Shown in pieces: positions 3,162 to 31,857 of a stretch of DNA of 32,000 nucleotides. The notes beneath the pieces are model-generated. The model was not told the origin of the DNA. It did not search any database and saw nothing but the letters and a program-made list of their open reading frames with translations. Made by a program: the position numbers and the translations under genes. The stretch covers positions 40,509-72,508 of the forward strand of contig NJBF01000022.1 in assembly GCA_003144275.1 (NCBI GenBank), read 5' to 3'. Position 1 is the first letter of the stretch; each line of letters begins with the position of its first letter. Source of the DNA: Candidatus Heimdallarchaeota archaeon B3_Heim (GTDB lineage: Archaea > Asgardarchaeota > Heimdallarchaeia > Hodarchaeales > Hodarchaeaceae).

Positions 3162-4103
3162 ATGACAAACATTGACTCCCCAGATCAACTACAGGCATAT
3201 GAACAAGCATCGATTGCCACTACCACGACCACACCATATTTCCTTTATGGAGAACTGATTAAAAGTAAGCAAACATTCTTGTTAGTTTATACAACCTTTT
3301 TTGCTTACTTAATTAGTGCGTGGTCGACTGGTTTTGACTTGAATGTATTCCTGTGGTTGAATGTGGGGGTCTTTTTTGCAATCTCGGGAAGTACATTATT
3401 GAATATGTATATTGATCGAGATATTGATGCACTAATGGAAAGAACAAGAGATCGTCCACTACCTATGGGAAAGATTTCACCCGGGACGGTTCTTCGCCAC
3501 GGTCTACTTTTCACATTTACTGGTCTTCTAGCAATAGCAATATTTGTGGACTACTTGACATTGACTGTCGTCTTTCTTGGTGCCTTTTTTGATGTAGTTG
3601 TTTATTCACTCTTATTAAAACGTAGAACTCGATATTCCATCATTTTTGGAGGAATTGCGGGTGGTTTACCAGCACTAGCTGGATCTACTGCAGCATCAGC
3701 ATCGATAACTTCAGCTGGTCTTTTAATGGGTTTGTTTGTTCTTTGTTGGATTCCTTTGCATATTTTAACTCTTGCATTGCTTCCAAAGAACTTAGAAGGT
3801 TATCAAAAAGCACAAATTCCCATGTGGCCCGTAATTCGAAGTAAAACTCAAACAATACAAGTTATTACATTGTCAGCTATTCTGAGCACTGTACTGATTG
3901 CACTAACAGGAATTGTATTGAATATTCGGCTATTACCTCTATTACCATTATTTGCATTCTGCATCTATATGATATGGCTCTCGGTTTTAAACCTCAGAAA
4001 ACCAACACAAGTTCGTACATTTAGGATCTTTAAGCTTGCATCAATGCTGATGGCATTCGCATTTTTCTGGCTCTTATTAGGAGTAATTGTATCTCCGTAC
4101 TAG
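3162..4103 (+). CDS. ctaB: Protoheme IX farnesyltransferase (heme O synthase, UbiA family)
   Basis: ELIKSKQTFLLV, LNMYIDRDIDALMERTRDRPLPMG, VVYSLLLKRRT, GGIAGGLPALAG and WIPLH are CtaB/CyoE signature motifs. Confidence 0.93.
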   Translation: MTNIDSPDQLQAYEQASIATTTTTPYFLYGELIKSKQTFLLVYTTFFAYLISAWSTGFDLNVFLWLNVGVFFAISGSTLLNMYIDRDIDALMERTRDRPLPMGKISPGTVLRHGLLFTFTGLLAIAIFVDYLTLTVVFLGAFFDVVVYSLLLKRRTRYSIIFGGIAGGLPALAGSTAASASITSAGLLMGLFVLCWIPLHILTLALLPKNLEGYQKAQIPMWPVIRSKTQTIQVITLSAILSTVLIALTGIVLNIRLLPLLPLFAFCIYMIWLSVLNLRKPTQVRTFRIFKLASMLMAFAFFWLLLGVIVSPY

Positions 4104-4231: not shown

Positions 4232-5050
4232 ATGAATATAAGCAGCAAAGTTCGATTAAATAACGGGAGAAAAATGCCTGTTCTTGGACTGGGAGTCTAT
4301 CAGATAAGACCCAATCAAGCTAAGCAGGTTTTTCAATGGGCTATAGATATGGGATACCGATTATTTGATACCGCCAGCCTTTACGGAAATGAAAAAGAGG
4401 TTGGACAGGCAATTTTAAAAAGTACTGTAACTCGGAGTGAATTTTTTATAACATCTAAACTCTGGAATACTGATCAAGGTTACAACAACGCACTTTCGGC
4501 TTTTGAAAATAGTATGGATCAATTTGGTTTGGATTATATAGATTTATATTTAATTCATTGGCCTGTTACTAATTTAAGGTTAGAATCTTGGACTGCACTT
4601 GAATCGTTGGTTGAAACTGAAAGGGTGAAAGCCGTTGGAGTCAGTAACTATATGATCAACCATTTAGAAGAACTTTTACAAAAGTGTTCAGTTATTCCAG
4701 TAATAAATCAGGTTGAATTTCATCCTTGGCTGTATAAAAAAGCTCTTCTGAAGTATTGTGAAGAGAATCGAATTCAATTGCAAGCGTATAGCCCATTAAC
4801 AAAAGGCCAGAAACTCGGAGATAAAAAATTAAAGAAAATTGGAGATAAGTATGGAAAATCTCCTTCACAGATCCTCATTCGTTGGTGCTTACAACACAAT
4901 GTTCCAACTATCCCAAAAAGTGCTAATAAACAACATTTAGAACAAAATATCAATGTTTTTGATTTTCACCTTACTCAGAAGGATATGATGAAACTAGATT
5001 TAATGAATCAAGATTATTCAGTAACCTGGGATCCAAGAGATTATCCTTAA
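4232..5050 (+). CDS. Aldo/keto reductase (2,5-diketo-D-gluconate reductase-like)
   Basis: MPVLGLGVYQ, GYRLFDTASLYGNE, FITSKLWN, LDYIDLYLIHWP, GVSNY, NQVEFHP and IPKS motifs. Confidence 0.93.
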   Translation: MNISSKVRLNNGRKMPVLGLGVYQIRPNQAKQVFQWAIDMGYRLFDTASLYGNEKEVGQAILKSTVTRSEFFITSKLWNTDQGYNNALSAFENSMDQFGLDYIDLYLIHWPVTNLRLESWTALESLVETERVKAVGVSNYMINHLEELLQKCSVIPVINQVEFHPWLYKKALLKYCEENRIQLQAYSPLTKGQKLGDKKLKKIGDKYGKSPSQILIRWCLQHNVPTIPKSANKQHLEQNINVFDFHLTQKDMMKLDLMNQDYSVTWDPRDYP

Positions 5051-20921: not shown

Positions 20922-22217
20922 ATGGCGGTGTGTCTATTGACGAAAAAATTTCAATCTAAATCTGAGATTCAGAGGTTAGAAACAATCGTTTCGATCACCA
21001 ACGCATTTATTCTCTATGATTTTCAAACAATGTTGGATTATATCATAAAAACAGTTACTGAGAAGATAGATGCTGCGATTGGGGGGATTTTTCTATTAGA
21101 AAAGGATTCTGTAGTGCTTGTAGCGGAGGTGGGAGGAACTTTACCCCTCTATAATACCGTCAAACAACAAGCGCTGTTTACCTCAACTGGACAGTCGCAC
21201 GAAAAGAATTATTCTACCATAAAGGGTCTTGCAGCCCAAACAGTTCTTGAAGAAAAAACCATAGTTATAAATGATATATCAACTTTACAAGTATCTAAAA
21301 GGGCACAGAAAGTTGTGAAGGACTTAGGTATAACTAATTTATTATCCAGTCCAATATAATATCATAATATCCCACATGGAGTAATACAAGTAGCTCGTAC
21401 TGGAAATAAACCGTTTTCTATGGAAGAAGTTTCGTTTATTGATGACATTACCGCCGAGCTTGGTATCGTTATCATTCAAAAGGCTACTGATGAAAGAGTT
21501 AATGAAACATTGGATGAGGTAGAATTCATGGTGGACTTATTGACCCATGACGTCTCTAGTCAATCAATGATAATCTGGAGCTGTCTGGAAGAAATTAATT
21601 CTATGTTAGATCCACAAAATCTGGATGGAGAAATTTTTACACAAACAGCGATTCAGGCACTTACTCGAGTTCAAACAATTATAGATCAAGTGAGAGTATT
21701 ATCTAGTTTGAAGCGGCTTGGGAGGACCGATTATACTCCCATTGATCTTGGAGGTGTTCTCAACAGAGCTATTAAGTCAGTTAACTCTATGTTCCCAGAA
21801 GATAATCTAGACATAGAGGTTAGTATTTCTAGTTATAATATTTTCGTCAATGGGACGACAATCATCGATAATTGTTTCATGAATCTTTTACAAAACGCAG
21901 TAATAGCTGATAATCATTCCGTAAAGAAAATTAGAATAAACGTTACTGAAACGGTATCAGATGTAATTAAAATTGAGGTGGAAGATCATGGGGAAGGAAT
22001 TCCAGATGAGCTCAAACCTCGGGTATTTCAAAGGCTTTTTCGCGCACGATCGAAGGAGAAACCACAAGGTTCTGGGTTGGGTTTGTTCATTGTTAGGACA
22101 ATAATTGAGAAGTTCGAAGGTAAAATTAGAGTAGAAAATAGAGTTAAAAATGATTACACTCAAGGAACTCGGTTTATCATTGAATTACCAAGAATTGAGG
22201 TTACTCCTATTGATTAG
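20922..22217 (+). pseudogene. GAF-domain sensor histidine kinase interrupted by one in-frame TAA (21357-21359)
   Basis: Track ORFs 20922..21359 and 21420..22217 share a frame. Read-through gives LLSSPI*YHNIPHGVIQVARTGNKPFSMEEVSFI, which completes the GAF domain. H-box LLTHDV, N-box NLLQNA, DHGEGIP and GSGLGL are intact. Start may be TTG 20937 after a GGCGGTG SD-like motif. Confidence 0.8.
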
Positions 22218-27755: not shown

Positions 27756-28537
27756 CATTATTTAACACTTCAAACAAGTAGTGTAAATCCTACGAGGTAC
27801 CCGAGTAAAGATCCAATTAAGGGAATAAAAGCAGTAATTCTAAACAAACTTGGTAGAGGAAATGGATGCATCTTTTCTAACCGAGTTAGGTTATTTTCAT
27901 TTCGTAGAATAGCCAAGTCGTTATCCCCAGTAAGATAAAGTTGGTGAAGGATTCCTTGTTGTCTCGTAATCATCAGATTTCTTATCCAAGAGTAATTCAA
28001 CCAGCTCTTAATAATTGTTACTGCATTTGAGTAGACTCCAATTCCTATTAATGCAATTACTAATGTCATTCCTAAGGTGATAAACCAATTCGAATCTACT
28101 AGCGCTATTAGTAGGGAAAATAGGGTGGCGATGGAGAAAGGAAGAAGGAAAGCAATTAACATTGTTTCAATTAATAAGGGAGGAAAAGCATTGAATATAA
28201 AAGGGAAAATCCACTGTACCTGAAAGTCAACAGAAACTTTTTGTAATTTGAATGTCTACTCCCCATTATCAGCATTAAACTGAACGTACTCTTGCAATAA
28301 ATTCGTCTCTGTCAATCTTTCGACTAAGGATAAAGTTTGATCATGAAATTTAGACCACTTGTCCTTTGTAAAGAAGTACTTAAAGCTAAGGGTAAAAATT
28401 GCTGAAATTTGACCAAGAACTGATGTGAGAATAGAGATAATCACTAGCAGAGGGAAAAAATCTGATTGAAGGTCAGCTGGGCCAAGTAATTGTCCCTCCA
28501 AGAAAAAAGCAACCATAAATCAATCAACATCATGACT

Positions 28538-28553
28538 AAATTTGTCAGACAAC
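28538..28553. repeat. 16-bp inverted repeat, arm 1 (partner at 29932-29947)
   Basis: aaatttgtcagacaac. Its reverse complement gttgtctgacaaattt matches gttgtcagacaaattt at 15/16. Confidence 0.9.
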
Positions 28554-28700
28554 TCTTGAAAAAGAGTTCTGGACAGGATGAGTCACACATCCGCTATCCG
28601 GCAAGTGAGTCACCGCTGAAGGTGAACTGACCGTAGGGATTACTTGGCTGCGGTTAATATACCGCTGAAGGATATTACGGGCGGCATTATAATCAGCATT
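28544..28700 (-). ncRNA. Predicted omegaRNA/reRNA scaffold overlapping the tnpB 3' end (boundaries approximate)
   Basis: TnpB guide RNAs are known to derive from the right end. Hairpins seen on the minus strand: GCGGT-atatta-ACCGC, GGATG-tgtgact-CATCC and AACTCTT-tttc-AAGAGTT. Confidence 0.45.
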
Positions 28701-29819
28701 CAGGTGATGACCACATTTACGACAACAGAAGCATCCACGCGACTTCCGGTTACGTTTGTCTACATAGCCACACTGACTACATTGTTGGGAGGTATACGCC
28801 TCATTTACTCGCACTACCGTCATCCCAACAAGTTTGGCTTTATACTCGAGCATCTGAACGAATTTAAGGAGGGGGATTTGAACAAAAGACTGATTGGTGC
28901 GTTTTCCTAAGTTACAGTGCTGTTTCCACCTCGCGTTGTAACCGATAACCAATGTATCGATATTGTGCTGTAAACAGTAAGTGATAATCCTCCGGGAGGT
29001 TTGATGGAAGAAATTCTGAAGGCGGTTCATCCGCACTCGCTGAAGCCCTTGAATCCGGCGAGTGGTAAACTGTTGATTGTGAGTGGTTGCTAGCGATCGA
29101 TAATGGGCCAGTTGTTTGTTATACCACTGATTAATGGTCTTCCCCACCCCGCCTTTGACGAGTAAGCCGTCTGACGTAGTTACGAGGTTGTTAAGACCAA
29201 GATCTATTCCCATAGCTCGGGGAGAAAACGAATCAGTGATGGGAAAAGGGTGAACTTGTACTTCATAGAGTAATTCTACCACAAATCGATCGTAAAACGG
29301 CACCAATCGAGCTCCCACACATGTTTCTACAGTTAATGGAAGGGTTCCGAGTGAAAAAGTGGGAAAGCCGCGTGCCATGAGATTCTTGGCAAAAAGAATC
29401 TGGTTCTCCCGAATTCGGACCCTGCGACGGGGAAAGTTCAGCATGTGCAGCCCATTCTTGGGTTTATACCTGGGCGCTCGGGGCCGGGTCTGAAATTTGG
29501 TCGGATCGGTTTTCCATGCCTTCAGTCCATTGAAAAAGCTCCGCCAGATTTGTTCTACCTGTCGGAGGACTTGTTGCGGTAAATAACTATCCGAAATGTC
29601 CTTTAATGCGAGATACACTGGTTCGTGCTTGAGGCGATGATACAAGCTCGTGTATTGGAGCCATTTCCCCGTCTTAAAGAATTCCTGGCGTACCTCATAG
29701 GTGGCGCAATTATACAGATTTTTGGCACAGGTGCACAAATCAGTAAAAATGGGTCGCGGTTTCATCTGCCTTCGGATAGCTAACTGGGGGTGAGAGTGTT
29801 TCTTGGTACGCATTCCCAT
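28545..29819 (-). CDS. tnpB: RNA-guided endonuclease TnpB (IS200/IS605/IS1341 OrfB family)
   Basis: AKNLYNCATYEVRQ HTH, RuvC-I MGIDLGLNNL, LVIGYNARWKQ, VNEAYTSQQCSQC...CRKC zinc finger and RuvC-III LNADYNAARNI. Confidence 0.95.
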   Translation of the reverse strand: MGMRTKKHSHPQLAIRRQMKPRPIFTDLCTCAKNLYNCATYEVRQEFFKTGKWLQYTSLYHRLKHEPVYLALKDISDSYLPQQVLRQVEQIWRSFFNGLKAWKTDPTKFQTRPRAPRYKPKNGLHMLNFPRRRVRIRENQILFAKNLMARGFPTFSLGTLPLTVETCVGARLVPFYDRFVVELLYEVQVHPFPITDSFSPRAMGIDLGLNNLVTTSDGLLVKGGVGKTINQWYNKQLAHYRSLATTHNQQFTTRRIQGLQRVRMNRLQNFFHQTSRRIITYCLQHNIDTLVIGYNARWKQHCNLGKRTNQSFVQIPLLKFVQMLEYKAKLVGMTVVRVNEAYTSQQCSQCGYVDKRNRKSRGCFCCRKCGHHLNADYNAARNILQRYINRSQVIPTVSSPSAVTHLPDSGCVTHPVQNSFSRVV

Positions 29820-29931
29820 TCCAAGAAGGCTCCCTCGCTCTTATAAGCTCGAGACAGAGAGAGATCAGTGAAAATAACAAATGTGACGAAAATGAACCTT
29901 TTTTCTTCCTGGCCTACACTAATAGATACCC

Positions 29932-29947
29932 GTTGTCAGACAAATTT
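29932..29947. repeat. 16-bp inverted repeat, arm 2 (partner at 28538-28553)
   Basis: gttgtcagacaaattt; both arms contain the palindromic core TTGTCWGACAA. Confidence 0.9.
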
Positions 29948-30361
29948 GATCATGGATGTATACAAAAAAAGAAGTGTGAGGCATACAAGAATTCCTATCA
30001 CAGGTGCAAGTGTGCTCATTGGTCGGAATGTGTCGAACATCTCCTTCTCTTTTTTTAAGTATTCAAGAAAGGTTTCTGCATCAGAATTAAAATCTATACC
30101 TTTCTTTATTTTCCAAATGACCTCTTTATCTAATACAATATCTCTATTCACTTGATTCATAATATTTACCTCTAAGAGATTCAATAGGACGACAATTGGG
30201 GGATAATATTGAACAGATGTTTAGTTACGACCGAGTTAATTTATAAAAGTTATTTTGATAGGAGAAATGGTTTAAGAATAGAAAAGTCTTTATTATGTCA
30301 TTACTTCAAAATCGAATAACTGATTCTTTATTGTCTACGAGAGTTAATTACCTAAAGGGAA

Positions 30362-31311: not shown

Positions 31312-31857
31312 ATGGAGATTGTTATTAAAAAAACAAAACTCCGCATAATTCAAGGTGATATTACTCTCGAAGAAACTGACGCAATAGTAAACGCGGCAAA
31401 TACTACTTTACGAGGCGGGGGAGGAGTAGATGGGGCAATTCATCGTGCAGGAGGGCCGACCATCCTAGAAGAGTGTGTTACTAAATATCCACACGGATGT
31501 GAAACAGGAGAAGCTAGAACCACAAATGGTGGATTATTAAAAGCAAAATGGATAATTCACACCCCTGGGCCTATATAGCATAGAGGGAGTCAGAATGAAC
31601 CAGTATTGCTAGAAAACTCCTATCGGAACTCTTTTCTCCAAGCAGAAAGAGTAGGAGCAACTTCAATTTCTTACCCCTCAATTTCAACTGGTATTTACGG
31701 ATTTCCTATTCAAAAAGCTGCTCCAATAGCGATAGAAACAGTCTTAAGTTGTCTTCCAAGTAATAGTATTCAGGAAGTTCATTTCGTATTATTTAGCACC
31801 CCTGATTTCACAATTTATTGCCAATTTCTGGCTCAAATAGTTGAGGATCAATCTTAA
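31312..31857 (+). pseudogene. Macro domain O-acetyl-ADP-ribose deacetylase (YmdB-like) interrupted by one in-frame TAG (31576-31578)
   Basis: [46 protein letters not shown] and PSISTGIYGFP. Track ORFs 31312..31578 and 31606..31857 share a frame. Confidence 0.88.

Follow-up and report, generated by a model that had tools for sequence, protein, structure and literature searches.

We analyzed a 32,000-nucleotide stretch of DNA from Candidatus Heimdallarchaeota archaeon B3_Heim (contig NJBF01000022.1, positions 40,509 to 72,508 of the forward strand; hereafter the window) and found that the tnpB block at 29954..28531 on its minus strand is a genuine, young insertion of a small mobile element. The host is an Asgard archaeon of the Hodarchaeota type, its close relatives being Candidatus Hodarchaeota/Heimdallarchaeota, in line with the Asgard-like host suspected in a first-pass annotation made from the sequence alone. 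Taken as a whole, the element is best explained as one copy of a non-autonomous insertion sequence (IS) family of Hodarchaeota-type Asgard archaea, an explanation that we consider probable. It draws directly on the borders, the terminal repeats, the CATG target, recent mobility, selection on TnpB and RNA covariation; to these it adds a mobilising enzyme, a target-adjacent motif (TAM) and homing, which we infer. The genome that contains the window (G000) is a metagenome-assembled genome (MAG) of 103 contigs, 94% complete. It was compared with the genome of a sister species (G013), with those of further relatives, including G031, and with metagenome contigs from four public sediment and cold-seep runs belonging to three studies. 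No description of a Hodarchaeal TnpB family with these ends was found in the literature searched. Prokaryotic TnpBs have been reported before within inverted-repeat transposons (Altae-Tran et al. 2023, PMC10691335), so the surprise is moderate. Unless another contig is named, coordinates are window positions and features of the element lie on the minus strand.

Borders and terminal repeats of the element

The borders were placed by aligning the copies and locating where homology stopped, a check that the first-pass annotation had proposed. Copies at unrelated loci turned alike exactly at 29954, where they read CATGATC..., and remained so up to ...AGTCATG at 28531; about 38 right ends in G000 lost likeness after this CATG, and the metagenome contigs lost similarity at 28530/28531 and at 29954. 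The true borders are 29954 and 28531, and not 29947 and 28538 as first assigned. Every copy opened with CATGATCAAATTTGTCTGACAAC (left end, 29932..29954) and closed with GTTGTCTGACAAATTTAGTCATG (right end, 28531..28553), and the minus-strand context in the window is ...TACATC CATGATCAAATTTGTCTGACAAC ... tnpB ... GTTGTCTGACAAATTTAGTCATG ATGTTG.... These two ends form an imperfect 23-nt terminal inverted repeat (TIR; 29954..29932 against 28553..28531), with 20 of 23 positions matching in the window copy, and each carries a junction tetranucleotide CATG (29954..29951 on the left and 28534..28531 on the right). For the family, the end motifs were CATGAYYAAATTTGTC on the left and GACAAATTTRRTCATG on the right. 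When G000 was searched with the end-repeat pattern, 67 matches were obtained, and the reversed control pattern gave none. Every full copy in G000 carried the TIR at its two ends, homology between 76%-identical copies was unbroken through the repeats, and no copy without them was found. Moreover, in all Hodarchaeota/Heimdallarchaeota relatives, down to about 70% protein identity, the repeats bracketed tnpB closely, at 1.41-1.43 kb.

The first-pass annotation had described the block as bounded by a 10-bp TIR with nine matches and by a direct AAATTT repeat. The letters quoted are indeed on the minus strand (AAATTT at 29947..29942 followed by GTCTGACAAC at 29941..29932, and GTTGTCTGAC at 28553..28544 followed by AAATTT at 28543..28538), and the inverted repeat is real, but it is merely the inner portion of the 23-nt repeat. 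The AAATTT had been taken as a 6-bp target-site duplication (TSD). It sits within the terminal repeat in every copy, and therefore it is no such duplication; it is also absent from the empty alleles described below, and homology between copies extends 7-8 bp outward of it on both sides. The alternative of a canonical element at 28556..29863, nested inside a 90-bp miniature inverted-repeat transposable element (MITE), was discarded, as no copy ended at TTCAA/CTGAT and all carried the repeats. The central proposal held: the element carries only tnpB and, in contrast to textbook IS200/IS605, is bounded by true terminal inverted repeats. The ends can also be read as an exact 11-bp direct repeat, TTGTCTGACAA, present at both ends, because the core itself is a near-palindrome; AAATTT, TCATGA and TTGTC-N-GACAA are each palindromes. 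Between the left repeat and tnpB, the non-coding part at 29820..29931 contained TTCGTCA-like repeats, a CT-rich tract and, upstream of tnpB, a TATA-like box (CTTATAAGAG, ~29847..29838). Every full copy kept this layout, of which the MITEs had a variant, and the region is the presumed tnpB promoter.

Copies, short derivatives and recent mobility

About six full or contig-truncated tnpB copies, with DNA identities of 71-93%, were found in G000, together with about 18 MITE-like derivatives of about 360 bp that were about 97% alike and retained the guide-RNA end, and one element of 146 bp. Insertion polymorphism was observed between species about 95% identical, and the family is recently mobile. 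Positions 146-181 of the MITEs (e.g., G000:C67:3835-3870) corresponded to positions 769-804 of the element (window ~29186-29151); this 36-nt piece derives from mid-tnpB, contains a GTAACT...AGTTAC hairpin and lies about 110 nt upstream of the omegaRNA core predicted below. The window bin of the same piece showed a very high summed metagenome depth.

The shortest derivatives in G000 were three 33-bp end-to-end units (C8:64499-64531, C35:1462-1494 and C50:11147-11179), in which the left and right repeats overlapped at TTGTCTGACAA. Such units were also found at L188:1114-1146 and L190:399-431 and in unrelated metagenome contigs, and they look like remnants of deletion between the 11-bp direct repeats, or minimal mobile units. 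Viral contigs gave no matches to the family, and the scan of metagenome contigs yielded nothing beyond 33-bp units, fragments and a single conserved but unrelated locus that belongs to a GC-rich organism.

Empty alleles and target site

An allele of the host gene without the element, which the first-pass annotation had recommended looking for, was found in G013, where the locus reads TACATC-CATG-ATGTTG, and was also bridged by contigs from the four public runs. The net insertion in the window was 1,420 bp. Removal of 1404 bp had been reported to join the host frame as MIKF-SHDVD, which is incorrect; the true empty allele differs by 1,420 bp and reads ...YTSM-MLIDF.... In addition, the empty alleles contained CATG only, which further refutes the nesting of a canonical element in a 90-bp MITE. 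The disrupted gene (27770..30184, minus strand) is represented in G013 by a single open reading frame (ORF) for a 331-aa membrane protein (L035:1271-2266). In the window, it was split into at least three pieces (30184..29936, 28516..28256 and 28162..27770) by the insertion, a 1-nt deletion in a downstream T run (~28517) and a further break at 28256-28162.

Six insertions of G013, three of tnpB and three of MITEs, were empty in G000, with exactly four bases between the flanks, CATG in five cases and TATG in one. Together with the window site, this gave seven clean empty alleles, each with a single 4-mer (CATG in six, TATG in one). Three further sites were found, one ambiguous and two with a single 4-mer carrying a single-nucleotide polymorphism; C69 and C85, also considered as empty sites, were set aside as too diverged, or re-occupied, in relatives. 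A 4-bp CATG TSD was not supported, given two loci where the non-consensus outer base was found on one side only. L065 shows TATG when empty and TATG...CATG when filled; in L207, the T of the empty site is kept at the left junction, and the right junction has the element's C. Therefore, the outer C and G are host bases, and at most the central AT is shared or duplicated. Among the junctions, the outer base was C in 44 and T in 2 on the left, and G in 55 and A in 7 on the right, with near-invariant inner bases. Sharing limited to AT is compatible with a staggered cut of 2 bp, with a crossover core of 2 bp and with insertion of a single strand next to YAT, and the palindromic target gives no basis for choosing among them.

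The flanks showed an asymmetric preference. The base before the left CATG was never T (0/46), and T precedes CATG in 37% of cases genome-wide; the base after the right CATG was A in 34 of 62, against a background of 37%. One CATG site, with flanks 95.5% alike, was filled by MITEs of opposite orientation in the two species (G000:C8:18882-19240, and L210:593-954 on contig C191 of G013). Inversion in situ between G000 and G013 was rejected because the MITE subfamilies were only 69% alike, which indicates independent insertions at one site.

IS630 duplicates TA in a CTAG target, and part of the above would suit a comparable process, in which TnpB was captured by a DDE-type TIR/TSD transposon and both element and MITEs were cut and pasted with a 2-bp AT duplication in CATG. 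We regard this explanation as unlikely, even if several observations speak for it: the symmetric 23-nt TIRs, the MITE derivatives, the palindromic target, of which no more than the central dinucleotide is repeated, and the independent use of one CATG in both orientations. DDE-linked TnpB branches with inverted terminal repeats, plus solo TnpBs with the same ends, have also been published (PMC10691335). However, the asymmetric flank preference is not produced by a two-fold symmetric transpososome on its own, and all the empty sites seen were a single 4-mer with no footprint. Moreover, the four DDE IS families of G000 had repeats unrelated to the element ends, profile searches of this genome gave no IS630-type DDE_3 (PF13358), and the TIR pairs in G000 and G013 enclosed only tnpB or MITE sequence. 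The capture by a DDE transposon put forward in the first-pass annotation is unproven; no DDE or other transposase with the same TIRs was found in G000, in G013 or in the scans of the sequence collections.

The TnpB protein

The tnpB gene (28545..29819, minus strand) encodes a protein of 424 aa with Pfam matches to OrfB_IS605 and the Cas12f1-like TNB (E-values of 3e-24 and 3e-17), and its stop codon lies inside the right repeat. The protein matched solved TnpB/Cas12f chains and showed RuvC-I D206, a relocated RuvC-II E340, RuvC-III D376 and a CxxC...CxxC zinc finger; the columns of these three acidic residues were invariant in the alignment. The canonical ...MEDL... of RuvC-II aligned to VIGYN, where there is no Glu. 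The rearrangement was analyzed with the signature D{P}G ... E-x6-CxxC-x(12-18)-CxxC-x(4-8)-D, combined with the lack of Glu at the canonical RuvC-II place. The window protein matched it as DLG ... E AYTSQQ CSQC x15 CRKC x6 D, with the Glu six residues before the first CxxC, and all relatives at 31-39% identity shared the rearranged signature. This RuvC-II glutamate marks the IS607/Fanzor-related TnpB lineage (Yoon et al., PMC10711439) and bears out the likeness to Fanzor-carrying elements noticed in the first-pass annotation.

Comparison of TnpB copies in 28 pairs gave dN/dS values of 0.06-0.17, with dS from 0.15 to >2. TnpB is clearly under purifying selection, with a dN/dS of about 0.1, and the protein is maintained; the terminal repeats stayed conserved over the same range of divergence. 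The two nearest TnpA-linked relatives, at 35% identity in a bacterial contig and at 37% (E 1e-82) in an intact element of G013, both lie behind IS607-type serine transposases. The nearest non-Asgard archaeal relative, at 35% identity, was in a Candidatus Altarchaeum contig (L094), where tnpB lies between the arms of an inverted repeat of 19 nt (3231-3249 and 4581-4599) that is 95% complementary and differs from the one here. Inverted ends may predate the Hodarchaeal family.

Predicted omegaRNA, guide and TAM

The last ~116 nt of the element were conserved in the non-coding MITEs, and this minimum common part (28531..28646, minus strand) is the predicted omegaRNA scaffold, based on the alignment of right ends and covariation. 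It would comprise stem A (~28631..28605), a conserved core (CCGGATAGCGGATGTGTGACTCATCCTGTCCAGAAC), hairpin B (28568..28551) and a 20-nt tail. Upon alignment of 52 distinct right ends, stem A showed up to four pair types per position; pairing in hairpin B was kept across at least eight different stem sequences, and 33 of the 36 variants folded. These data point to a structured omegaRNA gene that would overlap the 3' end of tnpB and the right repeat; no Rfam family matched. The 20-nt tail, which belongs to the right repeat, was complementary to the upstream conserved core (AGUCAU with GUGACU, and GAC with GUC). In IS607 TnpBs and Fanzors, the terminal repeat and the fixed junction bases belong to the RNA scaffold (PMC10711439).

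Following the build of the right-end RNAs of TnpB, IS607 and Fanzor (PMC8612924, PMC10711439), the predicted guide part of the window copy would be the host flank directly after the right-end CATG (28511..28530), and the TAM would consist of the left flank base plus CATG, i.e., VCATG. Since the right end itself reads T-CATG, and T was never found before the left CATG, a VCATG TAM would spare the element's own right junction and cut empty sites.

The 20 nt after the last omegaRNA hairpin might instead be a built-in guide to both ends, with a TAM-distal cut in CATG freeing the element with compatible ends, so that TnpB would mobilise itself. The absence of a transposase anywhere, the length of exactly 20 nt after hairpin B, and the inverted 20-mer at the left end, with three mismatches and, like the right one, preceded by GTT, are compatible with this idea. 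We give it very little credence, as the tail pairs with the upstream conserved core and is drawn into the consensus fold, like the scaffold ends of IS607 TnpB and Fanzor RNAs (PMC10711439); moreover, it offers no mechanism for opening a new CATG target and has no precedent.

Search for the mobilising enzyme and proposed mechanism

The tnpB element encodes no transposase and has no room for another gene. Profile searches of G000 gave no Y1 TnpA (PF01797), Cas1 (PF01867) or IS110 transposase (PF01548). An IS607-type TnpA was not found in this genome either, its sole PF00239 match being a Hin/resolvase-type gene beside a reverse transcriptase. A transposase-bearing master element was found neither in G000 and G013, nor among the 115 matches listed in five relatives, nor in the viral and metagenome collections. 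Cas1 was restricted to genomes in which these repeats are few or absent. Unpaired repeats were inspected as leads to a partner and rejected: that at C82:78049, 0.9 kb from a decayed IS701-like DDE gene, was a solo end fragment, and those on C76, C61 and C25 and in the G013 loci L153-L164 were fragments, contig ends or host genes.

As the tnpB-only elements are usually classed under IS200/IS605, we considered an ordinary member of the IS1341 group, moved as single-stranded DNA beside YAT/CATG by a Y1 HUH TnpA acting in trans, the apparent TIR being a shared near-terminal palindrome. IS605-type elements of Haloquadratum have identical near-terminal palindromes at both ends, are mobile without an intact tnpA, and collapse to terminal-only forms of about 52 bp by repeat-mediated deletion (PMC3119063). 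The 33-bp end-to-end remnants match this pattern, and the asymmetric flank preference and the lack of a TSD longer than 2 bp would also suit a Y1 enzyme. This explanation is nonetheless improbable in our view, more so than capture by a DDE transposon. Y1 TnpA was absent from G000, G013 and G031, and within the genus it was confined to 2 of 22 genomes, where its decaying copies lie next to another TnpB family. The palindrome core, with a 5-bp stem and a 1-nt loop, cannot form a stable hairpin, and the inverted similarity goes on for 12 nt outside this core, as far as the tips. Hairpin B, the only strong one, is confined to the right end, with a sequence free to vary, as an RNA stem would be. 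Finally, the right junction continues after CAT with a base from the host, yet this base was G in 89% of cases.

Returning to the non-autonomous family as the preferred explanation, its enzyme would belong to one of three candidate classes. An IS607-like serine transposase exchanging at the AT core is favoured, tentatively; a DDE transposase making a 2-bp duplication comes next, as a possibility of somewhat lower weight, and a Y1 TnpA is a doubtful third. The lead of the serine type comes from the TnpA-linked relatives at 35-37% identity, which were only of the IS607 type, and from the relocated RuvC-II Glu as a mark of the IS607/Fanzor-related lineage (PMC10711439). IS607 exchanges strands over 2 identical bp found at both termini and in the empty target, and has imperfect near-terminal inverted repeats (Chen et al., PMC6188088).

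Under this explanation, the element would have integrated at a CATG within the membrane-protein gene, and strand exchange, or a staggered cut, within the central AT would leave CATG at both junctions, with host-derived outer C and G. An enzyme supplied in trans would recognise the repeats and move both the full element and the MITEs of about 360 bp. TnpB and its omegaRNA would then cut the empty site, using the VCATG TAM and the right-flank guide, and the element would be copied back, most likely as with other TnpBs. The MITEs may act as stand-alone guide-RNA genes that use the TnpB of full copies.

Several points weigh against it. G000 and G031, the genomes richest in the element, have no IS607-type TnpA; the MAG is 94% complete, and plasmids or viruses would escape binning, so the absence of a transposase is weak evidence. 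IS607 usually has GG ends, is asymmetric and chooses its targets loosely (PMC6188088), whereas here the ends are symmetric and the target is specific. Because CATG is palindromic, the exact exchange point and any strand asymmetry are hidden. The trans-acting enzyme is given as candidate classes, none being pinpointed in the assembly, and the omegaRNA, TAM and guide rest on prediction.

Comparison with known systems

The IS607 family (IS607, IS1535, ISC1926 and ISXfa1) shares with the present element a TnpB of the lineage with the relocated RuvC-II Glu, and the nearest TnpA-linked relatives are of the IS607 type. It likewise has the same 2 bp at each junction and a single time in the empty site, no longer TSD, and an imperfect inverted repeat near the ends, and fixed junction bases are apparently folded into the right-end RNA scaffold in both. 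The element differs from IS607 in that TnpA is missing from element and genome, the shared bases are AT in CATG and not GG, the 23-nt repeats are symmetric and exactly terminal, the target is specific, and MITE derivatives are abundant. The DDE-linked branches and solo TnpBs of PMC10691335 similarly have TnpB within inverted terminal repeats, with its 3' end near that of the transposon, and their solo copies are presumably mobilised in trans; in contrast to those branches, no DDE partner was found here. The Asgard TnpB groups described in the same study are Cas1-linked, whereas Cas1 is absent from the genomes rich in the Hodarchaeal element.

The IS1341-group elements of IS200/IS605 and the haloarchaeal palindrome-associated transposable elements (PMC3119063) also carry tnpB only, have identical near-terminal palindromes and terminal-only deletion remnants, and are mobile without an intact tnpA in the genome. 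They lack TIRs, whereas the inverted similarity of the present element extends to its tips and its target is a palindrome. For Y1-dependent IS200/IS605, similar subterminal hairpins are expected at both ends; the strong hairpin of our element is at the right end only. IS630, a Tc1/mariner-like family, shares a 4-bp palindromic target with a repeated central dinucleotide (CTAG/TA versus CATG/AT), which is an analogy only, as the bases here are AT and not TA and no DDE_3 enzyme accompanies them.

The Fanzor1 and Fanzor2* elements of eukaryotes and eukaryotic viruses share the relocated RuvC-II Glu, non-autonomous TIR-bounded carriers, and a terminal repeat with duplicated bases in the predicted scaffold. 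The element differs from them in its host, an archaeal MAG, in the typical TnpB size (424 aa) and in the zinc finger; the likeness concerns the signature and the carrier. A bolder reading, in which this is an Asgard TnpB/omegaRNA family with a Fanzor-type active site and a Fanzor1-like carrier (TIRs, junction bases folded into the guide RNA and no transposase), moved by an undescribed class of transposase or by TnpB itself cutting its own ends, seems to us to have a small chance of being right. If true, a TnpB carried by a TIR transposon, an arrangement regarded as typical for eukaryotes, would have a place in an Asgard lineage, and some phylogenomic studies put this host lineage close to eukaryotes. 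Solo tnpB elements are the commonest form of TnpB, and this family is an unusually tractable case in which to ask how they move without a transposase: its borders are sharp, empty alleles are numerous, the target is a simple palindrome, guide-only MITEs have arisen in a burst, and the host genomes are apparently without any known partner. The predicted VCATG TAM, and the compact, selected Asgard TnpB with its Fanzor-type active site, bear on the origin of Fanzor-like arrangements.

Other elements and loci

The IS607-like element of G013 (L172:239-2157, on contig C54) is autonomous and encodes a TnpA of 195 aa (L172:1489-2076) with an N-terminal helix-turn-helix and a TnpB of 402 aa without the zinc finger. 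It showed no TSD and no GG, and its empty site was found in G000 contig C14 near 21585-21591; tnpB-only and right-end-only derivatives were present in G000 (C33, C58 and C82). The TTTCGACC repeats near this element were considered as shared left-end motifs and rejected, since the empty allele on C14 shows that they are host flank.

A second tnpB-only family in G000, of about 1.65 kb and without inverted ends, had at least eight copies that were 78-90% alike (C82:50635-52296, C38:57938-59598, C96:23641-25294 and C61:21532-23188, among others). It showed GG at both junctions, as in IS607, though G000 is without an IS607 TnpA. A short contig of the same genome (C2:185-7439) encoded a 1,593-aa protein, a 399-aa reverse-transcriptase-like ORF and a Hin-type serine recombinase, and is possibly a defence island or a foreign element. 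Elsewhere in the window, two adjacent plus-strand ORFs of 88 and 83 aa (31312-31857) looked, by eye, like a macro-domain protein in two halves, which would suggest a split gene or a frameshift.

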